Assembly: GCA_008632985.1 (NCBI GenBank)
Contig: QPGO01000255.1
Span: 62,001 to 88,603, forward strand
Source: Psammoneis japonica
Taxonomy: Eukaryota
DNA: 26,603 nt
Direction of reading: 5' to 3'
The translations under genes and the position numbers were made by a program. Positions 5,073 to 26,603 of this stretch are shown piece after piece; the first letter of the stretch is position 1, and every line of letters begins with the position of its first letter. Under the pieces are notes generated by a model. That model did not search any database. It saw only the letters and a list, made by a program, of their open reading frames with translations, and was not told the DNA's origin.

Positions 5073-5188
5073 GTGAGTCAATCGTTCGGCTCATTGCATT
5101 GGTGGCTTTCCTTCCTTTGTTGCTTGTTCTTTTTGTTTGCCTGGGTTGTCGTTGTCTCACCATGACTTCCGTGCATGTGCCATTCCAG
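5073..5188 (+). other. Putative spliceosomal intron (phase 0)
   Basis: AAG|GTGAGT donor at 5073, T-rich body, TCTCAC branch-like motif at ~5155-5160, and TTCCAG acceptor at 5188 (alternative CAG at 5191). Splicing keeps the flanking frames joined. Confidence 0.65.
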
Positions 5189-5479
5189 CAGGTTCTTGAT
5201 CCCATCCAGCCTGTCATGCTGTTTGAAGATCCCAAGGCAACGCAGAAGTCACTGGAACAGATTGCTGGAGGTGAATTGGGTCATGAACAGGAACTGGTGC
5301 ACCTTGAATTGCTCAACCGTCGCCAAACCGAATGAGTCGAGGACCTTGCATCGAATGCAATCAAATGCAGGGAATCGGGACAAGACGAGCCGATTGAAAA
5401 AGAGAACGAAAGAACCAATCATGCGAGAGGTTGGGTCCTGTGGTTCATTCGTTGCTTCTTTGCAATCGCTTCATTGTGT

Positions 5480-8010
5480 CTGCTTGCTTGGTGCCATGTC
5501 TCTTTGGTTTCATCTTCTGAATCGAAACCGGTTGCGATTCGTCCTTTGGGCGGGATGCCTGTTGCATCGTCTGAGACTTTGATGCTCACTCCGTCCAAAG
5601 CCTCAAAAGCCATCATGATCGCCCCTTCCAGGGCACTTGCGATTGTTCCTTCCAAGGCATTGGCACTGACCATCCCGGACTCCGAGAAGTCTCTGACGAT
5701 TTGTGTTCCGCTTTGGAAGCCGGCATCATTGAAGGCCTTGGCAATCATTTCAAGTCAAGAGCTTGTTGCGTTGGAGGCTGCAACAAGTCGCGTTCCAACT
5801 CGGAAGCTTCTTCCATTGAGAGTGATTGCGCTGCATGTCCCGAGTCGAGGTGTTAGATTGTCGAGGGCTTCTTCTTTTCTTGTCTTGATTCAAGCGAGGC
5901 TCGACGATGCCACATGCGGCGAGGAAGAGGCTGGGCCAGTGACAAGTTGGTGGCCCGCCTTCTACGTTCTTGTCGCTCTCTTCGCAATCTACGTCTGGCT
6001 TCTCTTCTTCTGGCAGATTCACTCTTTGCCTCGAACGATGAACGACTCTCTCTTCCGACTGTCTTCACAATCGGGATGCACGGCTCTGGCGATCAGGCCT
6101 TTTGGTGAATTGATGGTGGCACCATCCAAGGCATTGGCAGTCGTTCCGTTGAAGGAATTGGTGCCTGTCATCCCAGATTTGAGCAAGGCCTTGTCGATTC
6201 GAGTTCCCGTGCCATCTGCTCCAACTGCACCCCTGATAAATTTGTTCACGTGGGTGCTTGTGATGGGCATTGTCTTGATTCTTTTTGGAGTTGTTTGGAA
6301 TCAAAACACGCCTTGTGACAACGAGGAAGGAAGGGATCTGTGCATTCTTCGTGACGGAGACAAGGAAGCTCAGTTCTGGATCGAAGATGTCAAGGAAGTC
6401 AAAGAACCACGATTCTTGCTCTTTTGGATTCGACATTTCTTTGCTGTCGGTTCCTGGATTTTCTTCGTCTGGTGTCTTGCCTCGTCTCCTCGACCAATGT
6501 TCCATTCTGTGAGCTTGTCGCCATCTCATTCTCGACCGACGTCTCTCATGTTGCCCACCGTTGGTGACATGATGACTGTGTCATCCAAGGTGCTTACGAG
6601 AGCGCCCTCAAATGCCGCCCTGATTGTCCCTTCTAAGGCACTGGCGATCGTTCCATCCAAGGCATTGGCGCTGACCATCCCGGAGTCCGAGAAGTCTCTT
6701 GCAGTTTGCGTTCCACTTTGGAAGCCGGCGTCATCGAAGGCACTGACGATCGTTTCAAGTCGTGAGCTTGTTGTGTTGGAGACCGCAGCAAGTCACATTG
6801 CAAGTCGCAAGCTTCTTGTGTCGAAAGCGATCGCAGCGCATGTTCCGAGTCAACACTCCAGGGCTTCTTCATTCATTTGCATGCCTCTGTCATGAGTGCT
6901 GGTTGCAATCGGTTGTGTCTTCATTCAAAAAAGATTCGATGATGCCAGGTGCGGTGAGGAAGAGCCTGGACCAACGATGACTTGGTGGCCTGCCTTCTGC
7001 CTTCTTGTCGCTCTCTTCACAATCTGCGTCTCGCTTCTCTTCTTCTGGTGGTTCCACTCTTTGCCCCGAACGATGAGCGATGCTGTCTGCCGGCTGTCTT
7101 CACATTCAGGATGTGCGGCTTTGTCAATCCGGCCTCTTGGTGAATTGACGGTTGTGCCATCCAAGGCCTTGATGGTCATTCCGTCGAACGCGTTGGCACC
7201 GATGATTCCGGATTCGAGCAAGGCCTTGTCGATTCGAGTCCCAATTTTGGGGCATGCGGCCGCTGCATCTGTTCCAAATGCCGCATCAATTCATGCACAG
7301 AGTCAGGAACACGTGCTGTCAGCCCCATCTACATTCCAGATAATTCCTTCGAAATGGTTGCTTGTGATTGGGCTTGTCTTGACAATCATCATTTGGCTTT
7401 CTTGTGCTCCAACCATGCCCAGTGACATCGATGAAGTGGCGACTCGCCGAGTGCTTTGCGATGGAGACGAGGAGGCTAAGGTGTGGATTAAAGACGACAA
7501 GAAATTCAAAGAACCACGAAGCTTGCCCCTGCTGATTCGTCTTTTTCTTGTTGTCAGTTCCTTGGGCTTTCTGGTCTTGCACCGTGCCTCTTCTTCACGA
7601 TCGATGAGCGGTTCTGTGGCGATGCCGCCATCTCACTTTGGATCGACGGCTTTGGTGGTTCGTCCAAGAGGTGAACTGATGATTGTTCCTGGCAAAGCTG
7701 TCATGGTTGCTCCTTCCAAGGCCTTGGTTGTTGTTTTGTCCACGGCTCTGGCTCTGACCATTCCGGATTCCCAAAAGTCTCAGGCTGTTCGTGTTCCACT
7801 TTGGAAACCGGCATTGTCTGAGGGATTGGTGATCATTTCAAGTCGGCAGCTTGTTGCTTTGGAGGCCATCACAGATCGTTTTCCGCCTCGGAAGTGTCTT
7901 GCATTGAATGCTTTTGGGCTTCACCTTCCGAGTCGAGCTGTTGTGATGTCGAGGTCATCTTCATCTGCTTTGATCAACGCGATTTGGTTGCTGGCAATGG
8001 GGCTTCTTTG
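5480..8010 (+). repeat. Internal tandem duplication, ~2.5 copies of a ~1.0-1.1-kb unit, itself built of related ALAIVPSKAL-type subunits
   Basis: VPLWKPA-encoding anchor at 5705, 6710 and 7793 (periods 1005 and 1083, both multiples of 3). The DDAxCGEEExGP..WWPAF block occurs at ~5900 and ~6935. Confidence 0.9.
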
Positions 8011-8739
8011 GATTGCAGTTCAAAATTGCATCGCTCCTGATGATGACAATGATGAAGAGCCTTTTCTAATTCATCGTGTACACGACGAAGACGCCGTTCA
8101 TCACCAAGACCCGATTCCGCCGCATCCCATGCCACCGGATCCTCCGATCCATCCTCAAGACCCAGGCCCTCCTCTTCAGGCCGAGGATGGCTTGCTGCCA
8201 CAAGATCCCCTGATTCAGCCGCCACCACTGCCACAAGACCCCCATGTTCCTCGTCAACACCCCATCCCAGTCCGCAGTTGTAAGCCACGAGTTCTTCGGC
8301 GCTCCGCCCGTCTTGACAATGCCGTTGGTAGCGTGCACCTTCATTCCGAGAACGCTTGCGTGCTTCGTCGGTCCTCGAGGTTCTCGTGCCGCACTTAAAA
8401 TGCCATTTCTCCAGTCTATTGCGGAAGCTGATAGCAGGCGGAAGCTGATGGCAGCCGGAAACTTCCTCCAGGGCACGTTCACGTGCATTCCTACCGTAAG
8501 GAGTTGGCCACAACTCTACGGCGCGGAGGGCCATTTGTTTGAGCGATTGTCCTGTCTTCAATGGAGCTTGCACGCACCTGCTGAGGCGGGGTAGGCATTC
8601 TTTTGTTTGACCTACAAGCTGCAAGCTTCATTGTTGATGTGCCACTTTTGTTCTTGCCTCGAGATGGAGACGGTATGTTGGTGCTGATTGTCGGACCCGG
8701 CAATTTGGGATATCGTTTTGTATTGTATTCGCATGTTGT

Positions 8740-9385
8740 TGTTGACGGGATTGCATTGCTGTTTCGCTGCGCCATCTTCTTGTTTGCTTTCGTCGTTGCT
8801 ATGATTTGTCATTGTTTTCGGATTTCGTATCGTATCGTTGTTGGAAGTGTGCTTGATGCTTGACCATGTTTGTTGCGTTGCAAATCATAATGTTGCGCTT
8901 CTGTGATTGCCGGTATCGTAGTCGATTTGCTCTTTTTTGCTTTGCTATTGGTGGGGCTCGTTGTCGTTGCTTTGCGGTTGTTATGCTTTTGTTTGCTGAT
9001 TAAGTGGCTGCAATCGTGCGTCTTTTTTTGTGTCGGCATTTGCGGGGTCATCGTCGATGTTTCTGCTGCTCCTTTTGCTGGCTGGCGGTGCTCTCATTGC
9101 CTGTGTTTGCGGGTTTGTTGTTTTCGCTTTGTATTCTTTGCTGCGGGGTTGCATATTACGTCGTCTTGCGTATGTTTTCTCGGTCGTCGTTGTTCTTGCT
9201 CCTGTTTGCTGTTGTTGTATGCTTTGTTTTGCATCGCTGTTGGAAGGTTTAGTCTTTCGTCATTGTCGTTTGCCACTGCCGATTAAGAACTTGTGTCCTT
9301 GACTTGCCAGTCCTTGCTACTCACATATTTCCCTTGTTATAGCTATGGTGGTATTCCGTCTTGATCCTCTAGCTCTCAAGAGGTG
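8740..9385 (+). repeat. T/G-rich dispersed repeat, copy A
   Basis: Shares TCGCTGCGCCATCTT, GCATTTGCGGGGT.ATCGTCGATGTTTCTGCTGCTC, CTGCGGGGTTGCA and TGTATGCTTTGTTTTG.ATCGC with copy B. The last two blocks also occur in copy C. Confidence 0.85.
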
Positions 9386-9409
9386 GTTGTCGGACCCTGC
9401 TTTTCCCAT

Positions 9410-9880
9410 GTTGTTGTTTGACTGCGGATTGTGCTGTTTCGTTTTGTATCGCTGCGCCATCTTGTTTTGTTTGCTGTCTTTTGGTTGCTATTCTTGTCAG
9501 TGTTTGCGGGTTTCGTTTCGTATTGTTGTTGGAATTTTCTTGATGCATGATTGTGTTTGCTGTGGTGCTAAATTACATTGTATTGTGCTTCTTTGATTGC
9601 GGGTGCATTATTTTGTGTTGCTTTGCTGTTGTCTTGCTTTTGTTTTTTGTTCCCTGATATAGTTGCTGCAATGTTTCGTTTTTTTGTACCTGCATTTGCG
9701 GGGTTATCGTCGATGTTTCTGCTGCTCTTGTCATTGGCTGCCTGGCTTTCGTTGCCTGTGTGTGCGTATTTCTTTTTTTCGCTTTGTATTCTCTCTGCGG
9801 GGTTGCACATTTCTCGATCGTCGTTGTTCTTGCGTCGCTTTGTTGTTGGTGTATGCTTTGTTTTGTATCGCGGTTGAAGG
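9410..9880 (+). repeat. T/G-rich dispersed repeat, copy B
   Basis: Collinear diverged copy of 8740-9250. Confidence 0.85.
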
Positions 9881-9934
9881 GTCGTCGATTGTTTCTGCTG
9901 CTCTTGTTGTTGGCTGCTTGGCTTTCGTTGCCCG

Positions 9935-11812
9935 CTACCGGCGGACTCAACCGGTCCCGCTGCCTCAACCGGTCCCGCCGGCTGACTGACGGACGCTCGC
10001 TAGAATTAGTACGTAGCCCTACGCACAAGCCGCCGCGATGGATGAGTTTGAGAGTGCCGCCACAACGCAATGATAACGCAAAGCGACTTCTTTCCGAAGG
10101 ACATGCGATACAATCCTACCCTTGAAGAAAGCTAGAATACTAGAAGCTATACAATCATATCTCTAAAGAACAACAAAATGCTATAAGTCTATAAGTCATT
10201 TCAATGGATTGCTTATCGTCGTCAACGGACAACGCCGAAGATGCCGCGACGAGTCGAAAATCACAAAAAAATTGATCTCTTACCTTTTGCGCCAAGTTCT
10301 ACTCTAGAGTGGCACTGTAGCACTCTAGAGAGTAGTAGCCCTAAATAGAGAGGCCATCCGCACGCACACCCACACTAACTAACTCTACCAGCGAGAAGAA
10401 ACAGCACGTTCGCCCCAACTCCATCTGTGCCCTGGTCCAAATTTCATCCATTGCACTTGTACCTCTCTACACCCGACTAGGAACTGAGTGCTCCAGGATC
10501 TGATTTCCCCATATGAGCAAAGAGTATCAAAAGATATCTGTCATGTAGAACATGGGCCTGGAAATGCCACTGCAAGCTTTAACGGTCAACGACAGTCACA
10601 CTGGAAAATGACAGGCAAAATGAAAATATGAGTGGAACAACGTACACAATAATAATCCATTGGGGTTACATGTCACAGTATACTCACTAGGGCACCTTTT
10701 AAATGTAGAGCTGAGTCGCCTTACTAATTTTTATGCCCCCAAGTAACATCAGCGGTTCGTGGCATCCGCGCATTCAAGAGGAGGCGATGAACCCGCCAAC
10801 ACAAGCCTCAACCTTCCCATTTTACCCATTGCAAAGCCTAGAGTCGTAGTTACACCACAAAGATCTCCCAAAATAACGTGGACAATATTGTGTCTTAGAT
10901 AATGATGATAATGCGGTTGAAGGGTAGGTGGAAAGGGTCAAAAAGGACCAGACACCTGTGCGCATGATCGAGACGCACCAAAAAAGGCTCGTGAGGTATG
11001 CAAGTTTCGTCAAAACGAGTCCAAAACTCAATCAATCACAACATGCTCACAGGGTTACCTTCTTTGGACTATGGAAAGGCTGTCTGACAAATGCCAATGT
11101 CGTGAGTATCCCCGAGACTCCATCGCATCGTTTTGTTCCCACGGCATGCACTTTCAAGAAATTGTTATCGCCGAAAAACGACATGCTGTGATTACGAGCC
11201 GACCAAGACCTTCAAAAACATATCAAGCTTGTCACAAGTCCAAATAAATAGTAAAAATAGATGTACCAAAAGATGTGGAGTGGGATGAAGCACAAGGCTC
11301 CCAAACGGATGCGCTTTTGTGATGACGACGACGTGAAAAAGATGCCAATATTGCAGATGCAATAATCGACCGTACGAGACGATATATCCTCCTATGAAGC
11401 TGTAACAAAGCACAAACAACATCTTTAGTGAGTAGATAAACGGTATAAAATGAGAAAACACAGAAAGAACTTACCACGGCAACGTTGTCGACCATTCAGA
11501 TGTCACCCGTACCGTGCAGCAATCGAGTCACGAGTCGAGGCACGCAACCGTTTGTACCGTGTGTCGCCACCAAAGCCCCCCAGGAAACCAAACCAATGCA
11601 TCAACCTATTTATAACAACGATAGAAAAAGATCCCACATGAAAGATACATCGACCCAACGATGTATGCCATGGCGAGATGCATCAAAGTACAACATGCCG
11701 TTTTCAATGCAAAATCGGGACCGGTTGAGTCCAATCGAATTATTCGACTCTCGTGCTTCACCGTGGTGAAATTTCAGTCACGGACGCCGGGACCGGTTGA
11801 GTCCTCCGGTAG
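9935..11812. mobile_element. Non-autonomous DNA transposon, 1878 bp, 25-bp terminal inverted repeats, CCCG target-site duplication
   Basis: Left TIR CTACCGGCGGACTCAACCGGTCCCG (9935-9959) matches the reverse complement of 11788-11812 with 1 mismatch. CCCG flanks both ends (9931-9934 and 11813-11816). Extra subterminal copies of the core lie at 9964-9977 and 11716-11732. No transposase ORF is recognisable. Confidence 0.88.
11400..11474 (-). other. Putative 75-bp intron inside the TIR element
   Basis: On the minus strand: GTG|GTAAGT donor, CTACTCACTAA branch-like motif and TTTGTTACAG acceptor. Confidence 0.5.
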
Positions 11813-12039
11813 CCCGTGTGTTCGGGTTTCTTGTTTTCGCTTTTTATTCTTTGCTGCGGGGTTGCATATTTCGTCATTCTGCGTGTGCTTTCTCGATCGT
11901 CGTTTTTCTTGCGTCGCTTTGCGTTTGGTGTATGCTTTGTTTTGTATCGCGGTTGGAGGGATTGGTTCTTCCTCTTTGTCGTTCGTCAGTGTCGTGTGTG
12001 AATTGGCGGTCATGTCTTGCTGCGCATCACCATCCTTAT

Positions 12040-12804
12040 CTACTCACCTTTCTTTCCCTGTTATAGCTTCGGTGGGATTCCCCCTTGTAAGACCGGCTCT
12101 CAAGACGTAGGACCAAGGTGAGTGCCTATATTTTCGTGATTGGATGCTTGTTGGTGCGTCTTACTCTTTTTGGTTGTATTCACTGGAGCCTCTACACCAC
12201 CATGTCAAAACATCCATTTCGAGACTACAATCGCCTTCAACTCAATCTGTCCCTCTCACGACGCTCTACTCCATCCACAACGTTTCATTTGTCACCACAA
12301 AACCTCCAAATCGCTCGCCCAATACCTCGAGTTCGTCCTGTCCGTCCTTTACTGAGTTGTTCTCTCTTCACCACGATTTCTCTATGATCACTCTCCACCA
12401 CCACAAATTCCTCTAGTTCGTCATGTTCGTCCTTTATCTCTCTTCCGACTCGTTACTCCCTCCACGATGTTTCATTCGTCACCAAAACTCCTTCACATCG
12501 TTCGTATTCGACATAAACCACCCCCTCACCTCCAATTCCTCCAGTTCGTCTTGTCTACTGTACTGTGTTCCATCTATTCTCCATGATCCTTCTCCACAAG
12601 CTGATCCTTCTCCACAAGCTCCAATACCTCCAGTTCGTCTTGTCCGTCCAGTGTTGCGAGCCGTCCATGCCACTCACTCAATCTACTCGCGAGTAGGGTT
12701 TTGCTAGGCGGTGACACTGAAGGTGAGTAGTGTGTGCTTTTGTCCTATCGTTGCCACATTATTTCTGTTTTCGCTCGTTTCACTAATCACTCGCTGTTTC
12801 TTAG
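12040..12804 (+). other. Chain of splice signals suggesting a multi-exon transcript without a long ORF
   Basis: Acceptor CTCAC..TTCCCTGTTATAG at 12066, donor AAG|GTGAGT at 12118, possible acceptor at 12696 or 12707, donor AAG|GTGAGT at 12723, branch CACTAAT at 12781, and acceptor TTTCTTAG at 12804. Confidence 0.45.
12265..12650 (+). repeat. Degenerate C/T-rich repeats plus an exact 18-bp tandem duplication
   Basis: AATWCCTCNAGTTCGTCNTGT at 12321, 12406, 12534 and 12623. TGATCCTTCTCCACAAGC at 12584 and 12602. Confidence 0.85.
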
Positions 12805-12876
12805 GTTTGGAGTGTGATCCTTCTTGGATTGGATCGCACTCCAAACCGCCGCTCTCTCACCCCCCCCCCCCCCCCC
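12804..12876. other. 17-bp-stem hairpin followed by a C17 homopolymer
   Basis: GGTTTGGAGTGTGATCC (12804-12820) pairs with GGATCGCACTCCAAACC (12831-12847), with one T:G wobble and a 10-nt loop. C run at 12860-12876. Confidence 0.85.
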
Positions 12877-14109
12877 AAGGTCTCCCTCCCTTGATCCCTC
12901 ACAGGTTCGAATTGGGCCGTAGCCTCATGTCGATACACAAGGTTTAAGTAACAGCGGGTCCCGCCCCGCGCCTTACGTTCCTCGAACAAAATGTGGACCA
13001 GGAGTTTATCGACATTTGGCTACGCGACTTTAGTAACCCTTGTCAGGCCGTGCCTTATCTTGTACAGTAGTGCATTGATAAGCTTTTAGAATATGAATAA
13101 GGAACTTCTTTCCTTGTAGGAGCCGGCTAAGGCAATTCAGTCTTCTTTGGATCTAGTTTAATAGCTTGAAAAAATGTTTCTCTAGTAAGCATGTTGAATG
13201 GTTACGTAACAAATCATCTGGTCCATGCCGATTTGTTACATCGTGCGATCGTCTATTGGCTCTTGCATTCGTGGGCGTCGAGGTACAACATGTAAACCCA
13301 CGTCTTCGTTCGTCTCCCTCTTCTTTAGATCTGCACGTCGACAGCCTCAATTTTTCCCTCGAACAGCTAGTTCCAAGATGCAAACGGAACAACGCTTTAC
13401 TCTCCTCTTGACAGTTTCCATACGTCATATCATGGAGTGTCCTTGCTATTCTGAATTGCATGCGCCATCGCCATTTTCCCGTGTCTTTGTTCTCCCTAGG
13501 TTTTCTGTTGCCGACGGCTGCCGACCTCCGTCCAATTGAAAGCACGTTTATGGAAACGCTGTGCCCAAAACACAAGTAAAAAGGGTGAGAAATCTGCATG
13601 AGACAAAACATACCTAAGAAATATGGCATAATAAAGCGGCGTCACGATGCTATAAATACCCAGTACTGCGTACCCAATCTCATTGCCGCACGGTCGCAAT
13701 TTTTAGTCGCAGAGTAAAATAAAAATGCTGCCAATTGTCACTTGGTAAGCTCATCATCCGCTTGGAAGACTAATCTGTGAGTAGTTCAGCATCTTCTGAT
13801 CGACTATGCAGGAAATGTCTTGAGTGTCTATTGCTTTAGTCGTAGCCTCAACCGATCCCTTGCTGATCGATCAACCTGCTTGGAAGCGCATCATCGCGGG
13901 TACGTCGACAAAGAGGGACCCATCTACTGACTTCGCGTGGGAACAATGGTGCGCAGCTCAAATGAATCAGCAGTTCAGGTGGCCGAGCAATTTGCATCAA
14001 ACCAAACTAATAGCCATCAAATAGCCCCTTTCCAACTTCTTTTTGTCTGCCTCCAGTCCTTCGCTTCTGCCTCTGCTGTCACAATTGGCGGCAGCTCCAG
14101 CCCGTCTTT

Positions 14110-14890
14110 TTAAACGCTCGTTTCCAATTCACGTTCCACGTCTTGTCTAGACTGTAAGGGTTGAGTTGAAGAAGCACCTCGTTTTACATTGACATGCAAC
14201 TGTCCTTCACTATCCTTGAACTGCGGTGCCAGCTGTTGCAACGTTTGTTCCCAACGCCCCAGCCGTACGGAAATCTTGCAAAATCCTGCGTGATGCATCC
14301 TCTGGACTCCCGCGGCACTTGGAATCCGCGAAACGAAACAACATGCCTTCTCGTGCAAGGAAACGAATCGATCCATCGTCTGTCGGCTGAAGCTCGAGAG
14401 GATCAAAGCCACAGCGTTCCTTGACTTTGGCCTGCCAGTTTGCAAATGTTGTGTCTTTTTGACAATACCATGAAGCTCGGTAAATCTCGTCGCCCAAGTC
14501 AAACTTATGACAACCGTATGCGACAACAGAGGGGGGTTCCATACTATCCGCGTCATCTTCGTCAAAGAAGGGGTTCGGATACTCAATGTCCTTTCATCAA
14601 GGGCAGAGCTAGAATCGCCATACACGTGTCGGTCAGAGTTTTCCTCGAGACTGACTTGTGGGTTAAGGTGAACGCCGTCCGAGCGCAGGTTTGTATCCCA
14701 CCGGAATGGGGAAAATGTTGCAAATCAAGAAGAGTCGACCGGACATAACACCAATCATTTTTTTTGTTGGCCATTGCTGTAATTTGTAACGTTCCCTGCG
14801 AAGACGTCCACCAAGACGCCGCCTCAGAAGCGAGACTTCTCAGAGGCGTCAAAAGCCAAAACAGTTGCATTACGCCAATACCGCAATGCA
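14110..14890 (-). pseudogene. Probable frameshifted gene relic of unknown function
   Basis: Protein-like stretches in alternating frames: ...EENSDRHVYGDSSSALDE, then KDIEYPNPFFDEDDADSMEPPSVVAYGCHKFDLGDEIYRASWYCQKD... No recognised domain. Confidence 0.3.
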
Positions 14891-15378
14891 ACTCATGGAC
14901 GGAAAGGACACCACGCGGTTACAATAGATCCAATGAAACGTTGCGATAAATCCACAGAGCCTGAGAATCCTCGACCGGGCGTTCAAACAAAACAAGCGGA
15001 GGTAAAACCATGGTTGTCGAAATATATCTATTTGATGAATGGAACACCTGCGCAGCTACGGAAATGGCGACAAACGAAGCTCGTAAGTCTATCATCGAGC
15101 AGTCAAAAGGGATGTATCAAACAACAGATGACTTACCGGTGGTGCTGTAAAATGATGCATGTGTTATATAAGTACCGGAATTGCAACACGGGTGAGCAAC
15201 ATATTTTAGCAACAAGGCTGCTGCCTGGACGAACAGCATGCGTAGTTGAATGACGATTTCAAACATTTATGACCTGTTTCTCCCATTTCTAAGGATTGAC
15301 GTGGTTACAAGTAGAGATCAAGCTTCATGATTGTATTTTACGTGAACGATGTGGATCGGACAAAGACAAGATAAGAAG

Positions 15379-15930
15379 TTAATAGGTCGACGTACCTGCT
15401 TCAGCATCGCTCCAATTACTCTCGTGAACAGGTTCCTCGTCAACAACCTTTGCTACGGCTTTGCTCGTATTGGTTAGCTCGGCCGGCGAATGAGTATCCA
15501 GTGCTGTATTGTAAGAGAGTTGCAAAGGTAAGCTGAAGCACAAAGAGAAGACAAGAAGCAGATAGATACACGCCATTCATCAGAAATCATCTCCACGACG
15601 GTCCATGTTGTAGTCTTGTAGAAGTCGTAATAGAAAGAAGGATTCAACGCCAAGGACACCTGCACATGATTCAGGATACTGGCAATACCGGTAGCCCTTG
15701 AAGTTGATTTGATTGTCGAAGTTCCGACGGCAAATGCTTAGCATATCCTCCAAGTTGATTTCTCGATCCAAGAAGTACGCTACAACTTGTACCGGTGTCG
15801 TCATGGCCATGGTCTTGCCCTCGTCATTGGCTCCAAACAGCTAGGCAGCGATTGTATTCAAGGCAGCTCCTCCTCTCGCCAAATCGTCCACCGAGTAGGG
15901 CTCATCCACCTTTGCCATGTTGTCGAGGCC
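15379..15930 (-). pseudogene. Possible disrupted gene fragment ending in a hydrophobic segment
   Basis: Consecutive short protein-like ORFs (15580-15810, 15474-15665, 15379-15576) in shifting frames, with an in-frame TAG upstream at ~15841. Confidence 0.25.
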
Positions 15931-16242
15931 ACAACGTATCCTTAGTATTCCCGAACACCCGTCTTGGAGTTTCTTACTTTGCGGTGTCAAGAGAGAGTCG
16001 ATCTATAACATATAGCAAAGAAAAAAGCGACAGGAGGGAAGTTGTAAGCAGATATACGGAGAGAAACCTTCCTGACCAGCATATGTACTTCCGGCCATCA
16101 ACAAAGTAGACTGCCGCAGCAACGAGAATGCAGTGTCAAAATACCTACGTTTAAATCTCGGAGTGCAGGTTGTACGCTATCACGAATTTCTACATTTGCG
16201 CTCGAGAGATTACTGAGAAGGATTTGTCGGCATGATCAAACG

Positions 16243-16521
16243 TTACTCCGTTCGTCGGTTCTTCTTCTTCTTCAAGGCTGTATTCATATCGGCCAAGGCA
16301 GAGAAGGCATCTGCGCTTGCCGTAGCACTGTCACCACTGCTGCTCTCCGATAATGCCAACAAGAATGAAACAGCATGGCCATGGCGACACTGCACCGTCG
16401 TTGATACAACACCAAAACCTGTCGCTGGATACAACAGCAATACTGTAACAGCAATGGCGTCGTTGCTCACCACTTCGCTTCGTCGGCGGAACATTCGCAT
16501 CGACATTATGGCACCTGGCAC
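16243..16521 (-). CDS. Possible N-terminal fragment of a gene with a targeting-peptide-like start
   Basis: 92-aa ORF with a hydrophobic stretch followed by a Ser/Thr/Ala-rich segment. No homology recognised. Confidence 0.2.
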   Translation of the reverse strand: MPGAIMSMRMFRRRSEVVSNDAIAVTVLLLYPATGFGVVSTTVQCRHGHAVSFLLALSESSSGDSATASADAFSALADMNTALKKKKNRRTE

Positions 16522-18099
16522 TGTCGTGTGGTCACCAAATAGGTTATGAATTCCAATCGCGCGAATTTGCCTGCGCTTTGTACAATATCGTCAGTGTGTA
16601 TTCAGATTTATTCTTTCCTGAAGACTGCAAATGACATTGTCATTACCGCGGTCTACATCATTGTTGAACTATATAAATCGCATCATGCATTTCAAACATA
16701 CAGCGCCTGACATTGTACATTCGAAAAAATCCGGAGGTTTCTCGTGTTCTTCAGTGTAGAAAATCGAGGGAGATGATGATGATGATGCTTTCATTTTATT
16801 TGAGAAAGGACAGTCAGATCAAGATGTCAGCAGATCTGAGACCTTACAGTTGTCAGTGCCGGCATGTCATGCGGTCTTGTGGATGTGAAGCACAGCTTCT
16901 AGAAACTGGATTCTGTGCTTTCTCCGTGACTCACATTGAACTTTTTCGTGCTGTTGAACTTTTTCTTGAGCCTTCAGCAGTGTTGGAGAGGCTCGGTGCG
17001 AACCAATCATTTTGGTGAGTGCTGGCGGTCCACCAGAGTGAACGGAAATGGAGCTCCCTTTCAAACCAGGAAGTGTCACTCAAAGCAAGACCGCGCCTTT
17101 GCGCTCCACATCGCCATGGGCTGGATTGGAACACATTGCTTTGAAATTGATTTCGTGCCATGCAGGTTCATTGGATTTAAGCCACATCAAGCGTGCTGCA
17201 CTTGTGTCAGCGTGAAGCATGGCTCTGCTGGTGCTTGTGGACAAAAGCAAAAGCGAAAGGCCTTGGTTGGGCTTTCTCGACAAGACTTCTGCTGCGCACT
17301 TGGAGAACACATGCAACCAAACCAATGCACGACAGCTGGCCCCACCGACAAGAGTTGTCAAGGTTGACATGTGCCATCATCAAATGGCAATTTCACTTTG
17401 GAGCACAGTTGCGAACATTTGGACAAGCGGAGAACCACGCATGCCATGTGGTGGAAAAGATCTTGGGAAGAAATTCTGATCCCGTCGGTGGAATTGGATC
17501 CAAACATGAAATGATTGAGATTGTTGTTGGCAACCTTGCATGGAAGCAGCTTGGCTGGAATCCCACCACAAGTCGCTTGGTCAATGCAGTCTGCTGCACA
17601 CTGGCACTCCTTTCAACAATGATGACCACGCTGCAAAACGTGACAAAGGCGCTCACTTGGCACATGCTGTGCTGCTTGGAATTGGACAGTGCTGGTGGAG
17701 ATGTCTGACTCGAGAAAGCAGTCTCTCAAATTGTTGGGTCAACTTGGATTTGCCAGAGGATGCAATGGACAGAGAAATCACAAGGGCGACCCTGACGAGT
17801 GGACATCAAGAAAACCATTTCTCGTGGTTTGCCAGCATGACCAACTCTCTTGCTGGGTCACTCGCCTGGTCACTCAACAACCGCCCCAGCAAAGAAATGA
17901 CCCCCTGAGTGACAAAACGTCATCAACAACTGTCTGACCCCTCTGCCAGCCAGTTGCCTCTAGCCTCAGTTTGGCTTTGCCATGTGATTTCTCAAAATTC
18001 CCCGGGATTGCCACCTTTCACCCTGTTTTTCTGCGGGAAGGGTGAACTTGCCATTTGTCACATGTGGGCTAAATGCGTGCATAAAAAAATGCATTGGCA

Positions 18100-20720
18100 A
18101 CTCCCGTGCTTCCCCTCTTGCACATTTCTGCACGTTCTACATGCCAGGATGTGCGGCAGGAGCCAGACAATCCCCTCCTCCTCTGGACCCGCCTGAGATC
18201 TCTGAAGACGACCTGCTCTCAACACTGAGCAAATGCAAACCAGGAACTGCAGCTGGCCCTTTTGCACACTCAACAGACTTTCTGAAGGCCCGCTCCTTTT
18301 ACAAAACATCTGCCCCCACCAAAACACAAATCCGTCCCCACCTCGTCCCAGCCTTTCGAGACTTTCTCCTCCTCCCACTCACCAACTCTGTCCCTCCCGA
18401 TGCATGCACCATCACTCCTCTCCTCCAACTGCTTTGTTGCCCTTCACAAAGACCCAACCAACCTCAACAAGCTCCACCCCATTGGATGTGACACCACCCT
18501 GCATCGCACAGCAGGCACCCTCACCATGACACAAAATGTCTCCAACTTCACTGACTGCCTCCTTCCTGATGGCCAATTCAGCATCGGTGTAAAAAAGGCG
18601 GGCTCAACCACCTCATTCACACTGCTCACGCCAACATTGAATGATGTCTCAATGTGTCTGTTCCATCGCATGCCTTCCTCTCCCTTGACCTCACAAACTT
18701 TTTCAATGAATGCTCCCGAGACACCTGTCACCAACAACTTGACACCATCCCCCAAATGCAACACACCTGCTGCACATCTTCAATCTTTTCTGCAATGACC
18801 CCAACAAATGCTGGTGTCATGACCCCACTGGCACTTGGCGCTCCTTCCTTCAATCTGAAGGATTCTGCCAAGGATGTCCTTTTGCCTCTCCTTTTGTGGC
18901 GCCAGTCCTCAGAGTCGTCCTCAAACAACTCAACCTTGAACTCTGCCAATGCCTCCCCTCTTCCAACATCACATCTGCAGCTTCCCTCATTGACGACACC
19001 AGCACATGGCTGCCCCACACCTGACTGCCATGGTTCATTGAACATCTCACTGAAATCACCCCTGCACGGTGTCCACCTCAATTGTGACAAAACAACAGCT
19101 GTCCTCACCTTGATCACCAGTGATTCCCCTCTCCCACATCTCCCTCCTGCACATGCCACTGCCTTGCACAAAGCTCTCTCCCTGCTCAACCCTGCCAATG
19201 ACCCCCAACTCTCTCTCCTGAAATTGCCACTGGCAACCGCTTCCTTGGCTGCTTCCTTGGCCAGCCCATCGGAAGCGCGGAATTTGCAAGCACCTTTCTT
19301 GAACAAAAAGCTTCCAAGTTCCAAACCAACCTCAACTGCCTTTTGTCCTGGCTGCATGACATCCAAACAAAAAGCACTCTCTGCCATGCATGTGCCACAT
19401 CCTCCCTTCTACACCTCCTTGCCTCTGACATCTGCTGGCACAACTTTGACCCAGACAACCCCGTTCACACCGCGTGGACATCACCTTTCCAACAAGACAC
19501 TCAGTGCTGCTGTCACAACTTTCTCCAACACCCAACACCTCACCGCTCACCAAGACCCTCTTCCACCACACACATTGCTCCTCTCTCACCTCCCTGCATC
19601 TGCTGTGGCATTGGTCGTCAATCATTGACCATCAGCACCACACCCTTCTTTGCTGCCCAACTGACCCATTCCCTCCGATGCATGTGCAACCCACGGCCTC
19701 ACCACCTCTGCTGATGAACCCCAACTCATGCCCCCCTTCTGTGCCTGTTCCCTCTGCACATGGGCTGCATTGAGACAATCCCTCCATCTGCATCAAGCAC
19801 TCTGTCACCATGGCAATGCTTTGCTGCCACACCTTGACCCCCTGCCTCCCTCTCTTCCTGCTCCAGTTGAATCTTTTCCACTCAAGACGCTCCCTCACGC
19901 CATGTGTCACCTGCACTTTGCCAGCCAACTTAACCACCCGCCATGGCCCGCCACACATCACCACTGCACTCTCATCCATCCTTTCACCCTTGACAAGCCT
20001 CCCATTGCACACTCTCTCCTGTTCCACAGCTTCCCAATGTCTGTTGCCTTCCATCTTCCAACTCACACCACAAGAACGTAAACTGCGCTTGCCCATCTCC
20101 TCTGATCAATCCACCCCCATCCTGTGCCCATCTTGCTCTGGCACAGTTGACCCACATGGTGATCATTCCTTTTGTTGCCACTCTCTTGGTCACAAAACCA
20201 CCCCATCCAACTCCCTGCGTGATGGTCTTTTTGCACTTCTCCAAACTGTTGGACCCCTGTCCGGCCAATGTGCCACCTCCTTGGACAATGTGGTGCTGCT
20301 GTCATTGCTTCCTCAAATGATGCTGGCATCTGCCTTGCACCGTTCACCATTGATCACCTTGGTTCAACCGGCTGCTTTGCCCATTGCCTCCTCTTTGGTG
20401 ACACCCAAACACATCCCCTCCCTCCCCCTCCCTGGAACTTGGAATCCTCTTTACACCGCCCATCTGCTTGTGATGCCTGTGCCAATGCCCAACTCTCCCC
20501 ATCGGGCCTTCTTCCCACTGCCACATCTGCCTGGAAAGCCATCACCTTGACCAGGTTTGGTCTCACACACCACACCACCACCCCAAGCCAGTGGGCCTTT
20601 CAGAATCTCAGTCTCACAGTTGCCAAATCCCTCACTGGCCAACTTCTTTGCTGCTCCATCAAACTTCAATCACAAGTTGCAAATCCAACAAGAGAACCCT
20701 CCCATTCCCCACCTGCATGA
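18100..20720 (+). mobile_element. Degenerate non-LTR retrotransposon, CRE-like (RT, Cys/His knuckle, C-terminal tail)
   Basis: Frameshifted motifs in the expected order: KPGTAAGP, FVALHKDPTNLNKLHPIG, LLPDGQFSIGV, LSLDLTNFFNECSR, QSEGFCQGCPFA, LIDDT, GVHLNCDKT, RKLRLPI...CPSCSGTVDPHGDHSFCC...SNSLRD, and PFTIDHLG. The endonuclease core appears deleted near 20280. Confidence 0.8.
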
Positions 20721-20984
20721 CACCATTTCATCCCACTGTGCTGTCTGCACTCCACACCACACCACTGGGTGACATTGCACACACGTGACCTTCTCACACA
20801 CATGCACTCCAAACTGTTCATGACAAAAACAATCGACCGACCACAACGAAAATGGGCAACACGCCATGGCACATTTGCAACACATTTGTGATGGCTTTTG
20901 CCTGTCAATCATGACACCGTTCAATGCACTCAACAATGTCAATTGAACAGGATCTGTGGCACAAAACACAAGATGAAACATGAT

Positions 20985-21355
20985 TGCTCATGTGCAGAAT
21001 GCCAGTGCAATTGAGGCATCAGTCGTCAGTTGTTCTTTTGTTGTGAAGTCCAAAATGCAAGCCATGAGGTGTGCATGCAGCAAAGGCCAAGGCAAAAGTA
21101 GAACCACGCATGGCCAATGACAACAACATGTCAGATTGAATAGTCTCCCTCATTCTTCCAATTGACACATCTTGCGTGCAGAATGAAGGGGATTGTTCAG
21201 ATCAGCTCTTGTGTCATGCAGTCATGAATGCAAGCCATGAGGCATCTAGAGTGAAGGACAAGGCAAAATTAGAACTTCACATCGCTGACAAAAATGTGTC
21301 AGATTGATTGACAATGTCATTTTTCCCTTGGACCTGTCTCATGTGCAGAATGATG
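20985..21355. repeat. Degenerate tandem repeat, ~170-185-bp period, ~2.2 copies
   Basis: GTGCAGAATG at ~20992, 21176 and 21343. ATGCAAGCCATGAGG at 21055 and 21228. CAAGGCAAAA.TAGAAC and TGTCAGATTGA each occur twice. Confidence 0.8.
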
Positions 21356-21782
21356 CATTGGATCTTTTTTCCTTCTTGTGTTGTGTGGTCCCAAATGCCA
21401 ACAACAAGTGCTCCAGAGCAAAGGCTGGGGCACAGATGGAGCCGCATGTGAGCAATGTCAATGTGCATGATTTAATGGCAAAGTTTGTTCTTCCCTTGCT
21501 CCACCACAAGAGGCCACTTTGTGTCAATTTGTTGATTGCATCCATGGTCGTTGCCCGGCTGTGCTGGATGAAAATGAGAAAAAGGCACACCAGCCTAACC
21601 CAGATCAAACAGGAATCACCGCAATGCACTCATTTTTTGTTCCCCTCCCCAAGCCCGTTTGGTCATTCCTTCCCACCAAATTGCCCTCATTTCCCAGAAA
21701 TTCCCCAAAAGGGCAGGGCAGTTCTCTCTTGCCCTTGCCATTTTGGGGGATGCCAAATGGGTAAAACCAAACTGAGCCTCTG

Positions 21783-22011
21783 GCAATCAAATCACAAGTC
21801 GAGGCATGCAATTGTTTGTGCCACACTGAAGGGCGACCAAAGCCCCCCAAGAAGCCATGCCAGTGCATCAAGCACTTCACAACAACAACAGAAAAGACTC
21901 CCCACAAAAAAAAAGTTGACCCCTCTGTGTCTGCCATGGTGAGATGCATCAAAGTGTGTCAACATCAACAGGTGCCGTTTTGTGCAAAATCTGGAACAGT
22001 CCAGTTGAGTC
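21783..22011 (+). mobile_element. Mutated relic homologous to the right subterminal region (11519-11732) of the TIR element
   Basis: Collinear matches including ACCAAAGCCCCCCA, TGCCATGGYGAGATGCATCAAAGT, TGCAAAATC and GTTGAGTC. Confidence 0.85.
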
Positions 22012-23383
22012 ATTTGCTTCTTGGATGAAGGTCAGATGATGTCCATGAGCCACCCTCATTTTTAAAGGCTGCGGCTTCTTATGTGAGATCTTTTGCAAGT
22101 GAAGCTGCTGCACGGCTTCCTGCATGAGACCTTTTGTGCACACATGGAACTTTGCTCAACTTGCGATCAGCAAAACTTCATCCAACAGCCAAAGCAGAGC
22201 GAGTGCACAATTGTCAGAAACTGGCAGAGAGATGCATCATGTTGTTTTTTGCAGTGTGCAGCCAACACCTTGTGAGCACAAGTCAAGTGCTCACTTGACG
22301 CCAAACCAGCAAGCCCTTCAGGAGGAGTGGGGCCATCGAGTGCAGGCTCAGTTTGAGGCAGGCTCAGTTTCAGTTTTGCGAAGATCTCTGCAAGATCCCA
22401 ACACCAGCTGCAAGGAGAAAGATTGCAAGGAGCAAGCCAAGGTGCGCAGAAGCATTCATGAAAAAGCTTTTTATCAAGAAGAGCAAGCCACAGAGCAAGC
22501 AGAGTGAAACCACGAAAACCAGCTGTTCCTCAACTTTGTGAAAGAATTTTGCAAGAGCAATGCGTGCAACAACAGTGATTTCAACAGCTGCCTTCGTGCC
22601 TTTGCAGCTGCCAGCATGGCTCCTTCTGATGGCAATGATGTTGGCTGTGAGTTCATCTTGTTGACTGTTTTTGGTGTTTTGCAGCAACCCAATTTCTGAC
22701 AACACAAATTGCTTCTGCAATCTGCTTCTCAGAATTGGCGGATGAATGCATGAAGATGATGTGGGTGACGATGCAGCTCACTGTGTGGAAGGTGAAGAAA
22801 AGTGTTGCAACCGTTTGATGGATTTTGTTGCCTGCATTGATCATGTTGCCACCAACCTCAACCAAGACACTGGGTTGCAGTTGAAGTGCTGTTCTCTTGC
22901 TTGCTTGAACAGAGACACAGCTTTCATTCAGAGAGGGCTCATTCTCAGAAGTTGTGTTTTTGCCCCCCAGTCTTTCAAAGCTTGACCACATTCCTGTCAA
23001 AAGTTGACAGCTCCATGTGACACTCTCTTTCCCTCTCATGCAAATCATCATCATCAGCTTTGTTGTCATTCATGGGAACATGAGTGAGTCTGGTTTGTCT
23101 GTTGAAAAAGTCTGCAGAAGCCATCCGACATCAGACCTTTGACTCCATGTCTCTTTGTGGACGATTTCAGAAACTCGGCCTGTTCCACCACTTCAGACAC
23201 ACACGTGGCATCAATTGTTTGCTGTGAACAAAGGGCTGCCTGAATGGCTTTGAGGCATGCAAACCAAAGCTCATCTTTTGGCAATGGCACAACCAATGCA
23301 ATGCATTGGAGTGCATCCATTGAATCTTTTCACAACCCCACACCATCAAAGTTCACTTGTGCCGCTGCCCCCCAAGATGACTG

Positions 23384-23920
23384 GGACATGGCTTCTGTGT
23401 CACAGCACGCTGAAGAGCAATGCAAATCTTCACCACTGAGAAAAGTGCTTTGTCAGCCTTGTTCTGTCTTCTTGGTTGCAAATGTGGCTGCACTGTGTCC
23501 TCCAATGCCATTGCCAAAGGAGGTGGTCACCAAGTTCTTCCCTTCATCCTGCAACTGCATGACAGAACAAGTGCACAACCACGGTGATTTTGTTTGTGAA
23601 CAACAATGCATCCTCCTGCAGCAACTCTGTGGTGTTGGTGAGCCTGCTGCCCCCATGAGATGAGGACATGGCTTCCATGTGGCACTTGTTGTGCTGAAGA
23701 GCAATGCAAAAAATCTCAACCACCATGCATTGCGCTTTGGCAGCCTTGTTCTTTTCAGGCGCAAACATGTCAGCACTGTGCCCTCCAATGCCGTTGCCAA
23801 AGGAGGTGGTTGCCAACCAAGTTCTTTTCTTTCTCCTTGTGCTGCATGACAGAGCAAGTGCACGGCAGCAGCGACTTTGTTTGTGAACAGAAGCATTCCC
23901 TCCTGCAGCAACTCTGTGGC
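23384..23920. repeat. Diverged tandem duplication, ~280-287-bp period
   Basis: GGACATGGCTTC, GCTGAAGAGCAATGCAAA, TTGCCAAAGGAGGTGGT, CTGCATGACAGA.CAAGTGCAC and CTCCTGCAGCAACTCTGTGG each occur twice in the same order. Confidence 0.9.
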
Positions 23921-24099
23921 ATCTGCAAACTGTCGAATGTTGCAAAACAAGAAAATGCGCACAATGGCAGAACCCTGGGAGCAGAAAAACAGAGTGTCTT
24001 TCTTCCGAACTTTTTGCAAATTGCTCTGAATGATTTCCATGCCAGCACTGCTGAAACCCACTTGCATCAAGGACCCGATGCAACTGACGGCAGACATCA

Positions 24100-25470
24100 G
24101 AAACAAACCAAGCGCAGGGAAAGATGGAAGTGTGAGTTTAAAATGTCATTCCACCTGAAGTGATTCCACAACTGCGCAAACTGCAACTTGCGTTTCCATT
24201 CTTTTCAATGCTTCCTTTGTCCAGCACAAGTTCTTTGTCAACAATTGATCTTCTTTGTTTGCAAAGTCTTTGCAATGCACACTGCTCTGACAACCCAGTG
24301 GGTCATCTGCAAGCATCCCGGGCAATTGAGTCATTTGCTCAATGGGAGTCACAGCCAGTGTCATGACCAGACCCACAAATGCTGTGACTCAAAAGAGCCA
24401 AATGAGCAAAACACAAATGGTGGTCAGGAGTTTCACAAGAGCAGCATCACAAATGCACTCACAGTTGGTGAAGCAGCCTGTGGCAGTTCCGCTGTAGATT
24501 GGACTGTCCTTGTTGCCCTTGACTGCAATGTGGAAGAGCTCCCAGTCCCCAGGAATTCACAGACCATGCTTGGCACTTGTTTGCACAAACCAGGCACAGA
24601 GCTTGTAAGAGCAGCATTGAGAGCCTGATTGCAAACCCTCCAATGGCCATTTGACCATGAAGGACAATCATCATGGACAGCCACGTGGTGTCATTTCTCA
24701 GAACAGGCAAAGAATGGCGATGCATTGTCCCATCAATTCACGCATGGTGCCACCAACTTGAGACTCTTGCATCTTGGCATCAAGATTTTGACAAGCCCTT
24801 CTTGACATTGTGCTGGTGCTTCCAGAAAGTTTCTTTTGAACAGAGCCATCAGCAAATTTGCTTGCCGCATGAGCCAACGGATCATTCCTGGAAGCTGTGT
24901 CCTGCACGTTCTCAGGAAGATTGGTGGCAGCAATTTCTTTTCTTCGTTTGGCAACACACCAATGTGAATCAAAAATGACACCACAAAGCCCTTGAAGCCC
25001 TTTTGTTGCATTCTGGTGTGTTGCTTGGCTTGAATGGTCAAAATGGCTCCCAGGGCCAAGATGTTCCATGCATCGGCACTCCCAATCCTTTTGGCGGCAA
25101 CAACTTTCTTTGGGCTCCTTCTGCTTCATTCCAAGTTTGTTGTGAAAAGGCTTTCATCTTCTCACAGCAACACATTGGTTTGAGCCATTGGAACATTGAA
25201 TGTGCCACAGACACCTTGACACAAGCAGTGCCAGGTTTTGACATGCAGCTCTTTCTCCCAAACACGTCCACAAGCAGAATTCCATCCCATGTGATTTGGT
25301 GCATCACAGCAAGAGGCTCAAAATGAGCAGTTCCTGAGTCTTGGTTGTTCCAACTAGAATGACATCCATCTTGACAATCTGATTTTTGTGACAAAGCATG
25401 GTCGCTGGTGCCATCCAATGCCACTGCAAAATCCTTGGACTTGAGTGCATCAAACATTGACAATGTGATG
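24100..25470 (-). mobile_element. Possible hAT-like transposase relic
   Basis: Weak motif resemblance only: FAVALDGTSD (~25401-25430, like the first catalytic Asp motif) and LKLVAPCVN*WD (~24727-24762, like the xRW motif if the TGA derives from CGA). Confidence 0.3.
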
Positions 25471-25924
25471 TAAAATCCAGCTCATGCGTGACCTGCTGAT
25501 TTGCCCTGTTGTTCCTTGGGTGTCCACATGGTGAAATCAAAAGCAGAATGAGCTGCGCCCTCATGCAGAGCACTTTGCCACCACTGCAAGTCTTCCTTGG
25601 CCCACACCACCGTCAATGTGCCACCAACAATGGGCTCTCAGCTGGCTTGCTGCTGCAACTGACTTGAGTCTTCTCTCTTTGCTGCATGCTTTGCTTCTTC
25701 TTCATCATCAATGATGGTGGCTTCATCCACAATCTGCTTTGCAGGTGAGGTCACAATTGCCCTGAATTTATGAGCATCATCCCAAGCACCTTCTCTGTTG
25801 AATGTCCACTGATGAATGACAAATTTTGGCTGGCTGAAAACATGCTTGTTGATTCACTGTTTCACTTGCAAAGAGGAATGAGGTTGTGCATTGCTTGGGT
25901 GGGAGAGGGCAACGCATTCTGCCT

Positions 25925-26603
25925 TGAATGACAAAAATGACATGTCCAGCATGAGACTTGACAGATGCACAAGATCCTGTCTGTCCTCAACAGAGCAGAG
26001 TCTCACAAAATTGGCATCAACACGCCAGCCGATTTGTTGATCTGTGGCAGGGACTGGGATGAGCCCTTTGTCAGCTGCGCCATTCAAGTGTTGAAGAGTG
26101 TGTTTGACAGTGACAGCGTGGGAGGCCTTGAGAAGTGCAGGAGAACCAAGTGACTTGATGGGTGGTGCAAGCGATGTCAAGATGGCTGTCAGACACTGGA
26201 TGCTGCGTCAATGTGCCAACCACAGATCGGCAGTTGCAAGGTTTGTTGTTGCAGACTGGCAGCATTGGGACAATCTAACGGATGTCTGGGACAGATGACA
26301 ATCGTGTGCCAGATGAGAAAGAAAGTGGGCAAAGGAGAGATCATTGGATCTCTCCATGCTGTCCATGCCAGTCTGTCTGACACAAGGGAGTGCACTCCCC
26401 ATCTCGGATGTCTGTCATGCCAAGAGATGGGCCTTCTGTGTCACTGCCAACAGAACCAGAAAGTGCAGGAGTGGGAGCTCCATTGCAGTTTTCCATCATG
26501 GCTGCACAAAGAACTTTCTCAATGAGGCCAGTCTGGGTGAGCAGGAATTGGTCATTTTCCAGCTTCTGGATCTTGACACACAAGAAGTTGCCGACTTCAC
26601 CTT
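25925..26603 (-). mobile_element. Degenerate Ty1/Copia LTR retrotransposon pol fragments (RT C-terminal half and start of RNase H)
   Basis: GEVGNFLCVKI...LLTQTGLIEKVL..MENCNGAPTP; CRSVVG..L...SHLDIACTTHQV; KASHAVTVKHTLQHLNGAADKGLI; VDANF..LCSVED.QD; and, after a frameshift, SVKSHAGHVIF. Confidence 0.88.

Follow-up and report, generated by a model that had tools for sequence, protein, structure and literature searches.

Two TpA-depleted blocks in a contig of Psammoneis japonica: probable footprints of regional TpA to TpG/CpA hypermutation

What erases nearly all TpA dinucleotides from a sharply delimited piece of DNA? The question is raised by contig QPGO01000255.1 of Psammoneis japonica (GenBank assembly GCA_008632985.1), of which we analysed positions 62,001 to 88,603 of the forward strand. 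This stretch of 26,603 nucleotides is called the window hereafter and is numbered from its first letter. From position 16720 to the window end at 26603, and continuing past it, runs a tract without strand assignment that is poor in TA and CpG and rich in TG and CA. A first-pass annotation, made by a model from the letters, had reported this tract and had proposed a regional process that converts A to G in TpA. It had overlooked the CpG depletion of the tract, as well as a second TA-poor block at ~4363–8280, called block 1 here. In our analysis, the tract and block 1 are, with a probability of roughly 70%, near-saturated footprints of regional, DNA-level hypermutation of TpA to TpG and CpA, with CpG decay superimposed in the tract.

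The TA depletion of the tract is real and far beyond chance. The first-pass figures of ~30 TA in ~9.9 kb, with several hundred expected, agree with our count of 32 against 634.8 expected from base composition (observed/expected ratio, o/e, 0.05), and 1,000 mononucleotide shuffles of the tract yielded 635 ± 19 TA, with a minimum of 573. The strong excess of TG and CA is equally clear, with o/e values of 1.92 and 1.61, respectively. As described in the first pass, the loss affects both strands, since TG (1007 occurrences) and CA (1116 occurrences) each exceed expectation. CpG has an o/e of 0.28. TA and CG are the only depleted dinucleotides of the tract; every other NpA or TpN dinucleotide is undepleted. 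The combined surplus of TG and CA, 920, roughly matches the deficit of 603 TA plus that of 421 CG. This surplus is not of microsatellite nature, because runs of at least four TG or CA units account for only 24 of 9,703 bases.

For an empirical background, we used 78 eukaryotic metagenome loci around relatives of DPH2, a host gene in the window (0.63 Mb, 1,136 one-kb windows). Their median TA o/e is 0.67 and the lowest value 0.32, with none of the 1,136 below 0.25. Such values argue against an alternative explanation by native composition, according to which the elements arrived TA-free, either from a donor or virus with extreme TA avoidance or as transposable element families that had adapted to a defence directed at TpA before multiplying.

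The edge of the tract is sharp. TA counts per 250 bp are 14 (16500–16749), 4 (16750–16999), 1, 0 and 0, and the abrupt start that had been placed near 16720 thus corresponds to a drop over 16500–17250, with a transition zone at 16720–16900. The boundary of CpG loss (in 16900–17900) lies ~0.3–1 kb further inside than that of TA loss, and at 17–18 kb the CpG o/e is 0.48 while that of TA is already 0.03. Ten consecutive 1-kb windows, from 17001 to 26603, pass the thresholds (at most 0.43 for Rho_TpA, together with at least 1.52 for Rho_CpA+TpG) by which TpA-poor clusters are defined in a preprint on the chlorarachniophyte Bigelowiella natans (Mettrop et al., bioRxiv 10.64898/2026.01.13.699255).

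Block 1 (4363–8280, plus strand) has 14 TA where 225 are expected (o/e 0.06). TA loss is separable from CpG loss, because this TA-poor block has a CpG o/e of 0.85. It is composed of tandem repeat units of ~1 kb that are 89–94% identical in purine/pyrimidine code. Two open reading frames (ORFs), 5336–6895 (519 codons) and 6896–8398 (500 codons), lie in the same frame with one TGA between them. TGA occurs in block 1 at a rate of 0.025 per codon, at which ORFs of such lengths are not expected by chance, and the block was therefore once coding. It is an orphan coding array that lost its Tyr codons: Tyr represents 0.0–0.4% of the residues in the ORFs of both TA-poor blocks, compared with 1.6–3.3% in two host ORFs. 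A search with ORF 5336–6895 that scored 8,000 candidates of 285–909 residues gave no homologue at E≤0.001, no metagenome or viral locus was found for this ORF, and a six-frame read-through of 4000–16500 gave no Pfam family at E≤0.01.

Comparisons between related copies point to mutation rather than to native composition, as judged from aligned sequences. The sister units of block 1 show 16 aligned pairs with TG in one unit and CA in the other. At sites where one unit has TA, the other has TG or CA in six of eight comparisons. These differences include codons, with Tyr TAC facing Cys TGC twice and Cys TGT facing His CAC once, and there are numerous ACA/ATG, GCA/GTG, TCA/TTG and CCA/CTG pairs. 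TG/CA pairs make up 25 of the 153 double differences in TA-poor repeat pairs, versus 2 of 31 in controls, one control pair being an uninformative 100% self-overlap. Sister copies thus diverge chiefly at TA, TG and CA sites. A three-way majority-rule polarisation of the units was dropped, given that 264 of 570 columns are identical and that such a rule mis-polarises a near-saturated process.

The direction of change can be read from a pair of repeat copies, one in the tract and the other in TA-normal DNA. The tract copy (21781–22023, plus strand), which is located in a multi-copy part of the tract, has no TA, and its paralogue at 11517–11753 (plus strand), our reference for polarising, has nine TA sites. 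Their nucleotide identity of 74% rises to 90% in purine/pyrimidine code, and most differences of the pair are thus transitions. None of the nine TA sites is retained in the tract copy, and six of them are now TG or CA. The first-pass proposal supposed that A to G changes would be more frequent at TpA than in other contexts, and this is the case for this pair, albeit in small samples: 6 of 18 TpA strand-sites changed, compared with 12 of 102 for the remaining NpA contexts (p=0.029). C to T changes have affected 11 of 32 CpG sites versus 8 of 73 other CpN. Purine/pyrimidine-recoded and transition-tolerant alignments of the window revealed no further cross-pairs above shuffle nulls.

The paralogue belongs to a multi-copy, TA-normal element with three canonical introns (9930–11811, minus strand), whose TA o/e is 0.7–0.9. 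In contigs of the public sequencing run X1, its depth is 1294–2563, for a single-copy depth of ~60, and in run X2 it is 1073–1815. Abundant relatives of tract sequence are therefore TA-normal, unlike what would be found if the copies of these families were all TA-free, an eventuality that the first-pass annotation had held to be incompatible with its proposal. When read on the minus strand, the three intron joints of 87, 103 and 75 nt show the canonical GT..AG (CT..AC on the forward strand), with GTGAGT..CAG and GTAAGT..CAG among the introns. One X1 contig passes from 9929 to 11812, which would fit an insertion of the element. The exons have no long ORF, and run X2 behaves like RNA or cDNA, given these intron joints.

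We also compared the window with near-identical X1 contigs (90–99% like it), which are possibly alleles, paralogues or sequences of other strains. They differ from the window at 413 places, of which 318 are transitions, the window having A or T in 201 of them and G or C in 117. Forty of 438 rows of contig differences were examined. Among the 25 of these that lie outside the TA-poor blocks, 11 are exchanges between TA and CA or TG, with TA in the window in eight cases and in the contig in three. The rows examined in block 1 include two adjacent TG/CA double changes.

The make-up of the tract bears on the same question. Summed X1 contig depth is ~60–110 across most of it, i.e. close to the single-copy value. 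The TA-poor segment 20611–21944 is multi-copy, with a summed depth of 700–800, and the segment at the window end, 25947–26603, has a summed depth of 4661, ~70 times that of single-copy DNA, and is thus a very abundant TA-free repeat. The GC skew is about −0.4 over a strongly C-rich stretch at 17.9–20.9 kb (−0.39 to −0.47 over 18049–20834), and the remainder of the tract is balanced. Thus, parts of the tract that are unlike in strand composition and copy number are TA-free alike. X1 contigs link the TA-normal positions 12877 and 12387 to the tract positions 20975 and 25601 via 18–36 unrelated letters, which suggests another arrangement of these families at other places in the genome.

In the light of these data, we consider it unlikely that the elements were TA-free from the start. 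The two segments of high depth could reflect a TA-free family that multiplied, and in block 1, which was once coding, the gain of TG and CA matches only part of the TA deficit. In contrast, a TA-normal copy of one tract segment is present in the same window, the sister units of block 1 differ by TG versus CA at the same sites and some of them keep TA, Tyr codons included, and compositionally unlike parts of the tract share the TA-free state. In addition, copies that had been saturated independently would remain at least 90% alike anyway.

The TAs that survive in both TA-poor blocks give an indication of the preferred target. With the TA-normal parts of the window as a reference, and with R and Y standing for purine and pyrimidine, R-TA-Y sites have almost disappeared (1 surviving, 143 in the reference), while 23 sites of mixed context (290) and 18 Y-TA-R sites (79) survive. 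The difference in survival between R-TA-Y and Y-TA-R is significant (p=3.5e-7). The loss of R-TA-Y together with the partial sparing of Y-TA-R is what would be expected from an agent with the single-strand target 5'-T-A-Y-3', a TA site being open to attack on either strand. A target 5'-R-T-A-3' fits equally if thymine is attacked.

The latter possibility corresponds to a thymine-directed chemistry, in which the T of TpA ends up as C, either through faulty repair or after a modification such as oxidation to 5-hydroxymethyluracil by an enzyme of the TET/JBP type. T to C at TpA is indistinguishable from A to G on the opposite strand, and this reading accommodates the strand-symmetric signature as well as the context, T-A-Y being equally readable as R-T-A. 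Some protists modify thymine preferentially at TpA. We know of no pathway, however, that turns modified T efficiently into C. In addition, the authors of the B. natans preprint favour adenine deamination, without proof (10.64898/2026.01.13.699255). We regard thymine-directed chemistry as quite unlikely.

The exchange of TA for TG or CA has a peculiar consequence for reading frames. TAA becomes TGA or CAA and TAG becomes TGG or CAG, and the process therefore never creates a stop codon but removes TAA and TAG. Together, these two codons occur at 0.002 per codon in TA-poor DNA, compared with 0.018 in normal DNA. Long empty ORFs arise because of this removal, and the open frames found here are therefore no sign of function.

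The identity of the tract DNA was probed in several ways. The first-pass annotation had labelled parts of it as CRE-like, Copia and DNA-transposon relics, labels for which Pfam, HMMER and PDB searches gave no support. Six-frame read-through of 16500–26603 yielded no Pfam family at E≤0.01, and 11 short pieces, nine of them from the tract, yielded nothing relevant at E≤10. ORF 18645–19628 (327 codons) had no match in a HMMER search against 1.84 billion representatives and a single irrelevant match in the PDB (E 0.28). No viral loci were found for the tract ORFs 23453–24145 and 21289–21942, and Rfam and tRNA scans gave no match.

A weak lead came from a language-model feature search (Atlas) with ORF 18645–19628, in which 27 of the 30 named matches are clusters of RVT_1, with a score of 0.92. 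The 138 shared features are below the 170 typical of true members, and the motifs resembling those of reverse transcriptases (RTs) are divided between frames 1 and 3. A C-rich, frameshifted RT-like relic may thus be present at 18049–20834 (plus strand, ~18.0–20.8 kb), which we treat as a lead and not as a result. X1 contigs bridge 18048 to 20835 and 18128 to 20828, with short sides of 35 and 26 letters, which suggests a nested insertion of the putative relic. At this site, we saw no clear target-site duplication.

This weak lead speaks for an alternative in which the signature comes from RNA, by A-to-I editing of retroelement transcripts by ADAR- or ADAT-like enzymes that was then fixed in DNA by reverse transcription. 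In keeping with this idea, the base that ADAR usually favours upstream of the edited adenosine is U, according to the Discussion of the B. natans preprint (10.64898/2026.01.13.699255). Nevertheless, editing of one strand would generate TG on the sense strand only, and the tract has both TG (1007) and CA (1116), with CA exceeding TG even in the RT-like part. The TA-free state also spans the flanks of the RT-like segment and block 1, the latter without an RT signal. Moreover, the targets in B. natans are single-copy integrated DNA viruses (10.64898/2026.01.13.699255). We therefore deem an RNA-level origin very unlikely.

The assembled sequence itself is supported by reads. Contigs of run X1 recover the tract at a k-mer depth of ~60–70; one of 2,509 nt over 18004–20511 differs from the window by nine letters, and another of 2,581 nt over 22678–25258 by 11 letters. 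Run X1 and the assembly possibly share their source sample, and this agreement is thus not fully independent. No RNA dataset containing the tract was found. In runs X2 and X3, 17276–25946 and 6604–9938 are uncovered, which has no bearing on expression. In favour of a mis-calling of modified bases in the reads behind the assembly, X1 is the sole run with the tract, is possibly the assembly's own sample and has no recorded library type. Against such an artefact, the k-mer contigs agree with the tract to within 0.2–0.4% differences, the effect is limited to sharp blocks with normal TA between them, and TA-normal and TA-free copies of one sequence stand side by side in the window. B. natans shows the same signature in Illumina data (10.64898/2026.01.13.699255). 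An artefact thus appears extremely unlikely.

The host lineage is indicated by DPH2 (2471–4210, minus strand; Pfam Diphthamide_syn, E 3.9e-65), the sole lineage marker tested. All ten organism-named matches among the best 120 relatives of DPH2 are diatoms, with 40–50% identity, and the best of the remaining matches reach 58%. Located ~150 bp from block 1, DPH2 is unaffected, with a TA o/e of ~0.5. Pfam analyses of 22 long ORFs of the window identified only DPH2, plus a sub-threshold Prok-E2_B match for the first ORF. The latter is a 629-codon open frame (3–1892, plus strand) that runs off the window start, is rich in Lys, Val, Pro and Ser, and has no Pfam family above threshold. It contains seven tandem repeats of 156 bp, i.e. 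52 codons, at 437–1539 (87% match). A perfect 75-bp tandem duplication (1960–2108, 2.0 copies, 100% match) lies between this ORF and DPH2. The 8700–9900 region has a strongly T-rich strand, with an AT skew of −0.65 at 9–10 kb, and near-identical contigs elsewhere differ from this copy mainly by TA to CA. There are also internal repeats, 8728–9248 with 9403–9882, and 9099–9384 with 11812–12108.

How does this signature relate to known systems? The repeat-induced point mutation of fungi (RIP) similarly hypermutates regions of duplicated or foreign DNA by transitions at specific dinucleotides, plausibly as a genome defence. It runs in the opposite direction, from CpA to TpA, raising TA and creating stops, whereas TA and stop codons are both lost here. 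The TA o/e of 0.05 in the tract, together with those of 1.61 for CA and 1.92 for TG, is the reverse of the TpA enrichment and CpA/TpG depletion left by RIP. Deamination of 5-methylcytosine (5mC) does yield TG and CA and accounts for the low CpG of the tract (o/e 0.28). On its own, 5mC-type CpG decay cannot remove TpA and is thus rejected as the sole cause, with 603 TA missing from the tract and with block 1 TA-poor at a CpG o/e of 0.85. As the first-pass annotation had stated, neither process removes TpA; 5mC deamination explains only the CpG part. APOBEC and ADAR footprints also represent hypermutation of mobile elements by deaminases. APOBEC causes C to T or G to A changes, and ADAR acts on RNA with a strand-specific footprint; neither fits the symmetric exchange of TA for TG and CA.

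The first-pass statement that no characterised system with this signature was known is outdated. The B. natans preprint, dated 2026-04-14, measured exactly this spectrum, describing TpA-specific A:T to G:C hypermutation of integrated viral or foreign DNA (10.64898/2026.01.13.699255). According to its main text, two integrated viral regions received 231 of the 302 new nuclear mutations in mutation-accumulation lines; all but one of these 231, i.e. 230, were A to G or T to C, and all of these GC-biased mutations were on TpA. The genome has 124 TpA-poor, CpA+TpG-rich clusters, and 324 low-TpA coding sequences are enriched in RT and DDE domains. The authors propose an ADAT2-like adenine deaminase, which is unproven. 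In our searches of the literature on TpA-poor repeats in diatoms or elsewhere, this preprint was the only report found; the 'hypermutation' of the SPLASH paper is that of immunoglobulins.

The likeness with the present locus is close, as both show TpA to TpG/CpA changes on both strands, in delimited regions beside normal DNA, and form TpA-poor, CpA+TpG-rich clusters, the tract passing the thresholds of the preprint. There are differences as well. B. natans is a chlorarachniophyte, i.e. a rhizarian, whereas the host marker here is diatom-like, i.e. of stramenopile type. Mutations were observed directly in its accumulation lines, whereas the footprint here comes from sequence comparison. The giant-virus region of B. 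natans has a TpA value of 0.45, whereas the tract is near saturation at an o/e of 0.05. The B. natans targets are viral, whereas no viral-locus match was obtained here for ORFs 5336–6895, 23453–24145 and 21289–21942. CpG decay is seen here in one block only, and CpG is unmentioned in the main text of the preprint, as are diatoms. Similarly, a flanking-base preference is found here, and the words 'flanking' and 'trinucleotide' are absent from that text. Relative to it, the new elements are the flanking-base preference, the separability of TA loss from CpG loss and the absence of stop creation.

Thus, the part of the first-pass proposal that stands as the best reading is a regional A to G process at TpA, as illustrated by the paralogue pair in which none of nine TA sites is kept and six have become TG or CA. 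Its repeat-targeting is not supported, most of the tract being approximately single-copy at ≥90% likeness, nor are its element identities. The mechanisms put forward in the first pass were adenine modification or deamination and error-prone repair of the Pol eta type. Under the hypermutation reading, A:T pairs would be converted to G:C at TpA on either strand, in delimited DNA of decayed or foreign appearance, with neighbouring host genes spared. The agent would be an enzyme that works on one strand of the DNA and prefers 5'-T-A-Y-3', or 5'-R-T-A-3' if thymine is attacked, as its target. The most likely candidate, proposed as a hypothesis only, would be a polynucleotide adenine deaminase that converts A to inosine, which is read as G. 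The process would be independent of cytosine methylation, as block 1 lost TA and kept CpG, and the tract would additionally have undergone ordinary 5mC-type CpG decay. Proteins would be destroyed by missense changes, from Tyr to His or Cys among others, with long frames left open.

Polynucleotide adenine deaminases of the TadA/ADAT2 type, including engineered DNA editors, perform this A to G chemistry, which is a resemblance in mechanism only. ABE10, a TadA-8e variant, is described as preferring adenine in a 'YAC' context (PMC13109818), which resembles the T-A-Y preference found in this window. In amphioxus, the DNA sites edited by ADAT2 are GAA and TCG, with a preference for hairpin loops (PMC10354150).

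Several observations weigh against hypermutation as we propose it. Direct evidence for the polarity of change is thin, coming from one polarisable pair with 251 columns and nine TA sites, and the context analysis takes the TA-normal parts of the window as a proxy for the ancestral context. The CpA+TpG values of block 1, 1.34–1.35, are under the threshold of 1.52, although that for TpA is passed. Its TA deficit of 212 exceeds its TG/CA surplus of 165, and GA and TC are raised too; some native avoidance of TA in this coding array may contribute. Furthermore, a TG/CA pair can equally descend from CG, and signs of CpG decay are found in block 1 as well. The TA-poor segments 20611–21944 and 25947–26603 occur at high summed depth, and a TA-free family may have spread. 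The putative RT relic is without Pfam, HMMER or PDB support, and the foreign or repeat origin of the TA-poor DNA is not demonstrated. Lastly, among eukaryotic ADAT2 enzymes, that of amphioxus is the sole one with demonstrated DNA editing, and its preferred adenine context is GAA rather than TA (PMC10354150).

If regional TpA hypermutation is nevertheless the correct explanation, a process already in print for one unrelated alga would be present in a second, distant lineage. The 2026 preprint on one chlorarachniophyte is so far the sole report of TpA-specific hypermutation of foreign DNA, and the process would then not be peculiar to a single alga. It would reach an ecologically major group, with genetic tools in some species. 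The footprint also provides constraints for the search for the enzyme, namely that the target is T-A-Y (or R-T-A), that both strands are affected, that the affected regions are sharply limited and that the process does not depend on CpG decay. For genome annotation, it calls for caution: a long, Tyr-less open frame in TA-free DNA may represent a dead gene, because the exchange of TA for TG or CA removes stops instead of creating them.

One may go further and envisage, tentatively and at less than even odds, that diatoms or this lineage possess a dedicated genome defence that would deaminate adenine in 5'-T-A-Y-3' within marked repeats or foreign DNA, independently of 5mC, and disable genes by missense changes without closing their reading frames. 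If such a defence system exists, its presence in a stramenopile and a rhizarian would imply either an old system shared across SAR (stramenopiles, alveolates and rhizarians) or repeated invention, and the RIP-like defences of eukaryotes would have a wider range and a more diverse chemistry than the fungal paradigm suggests.

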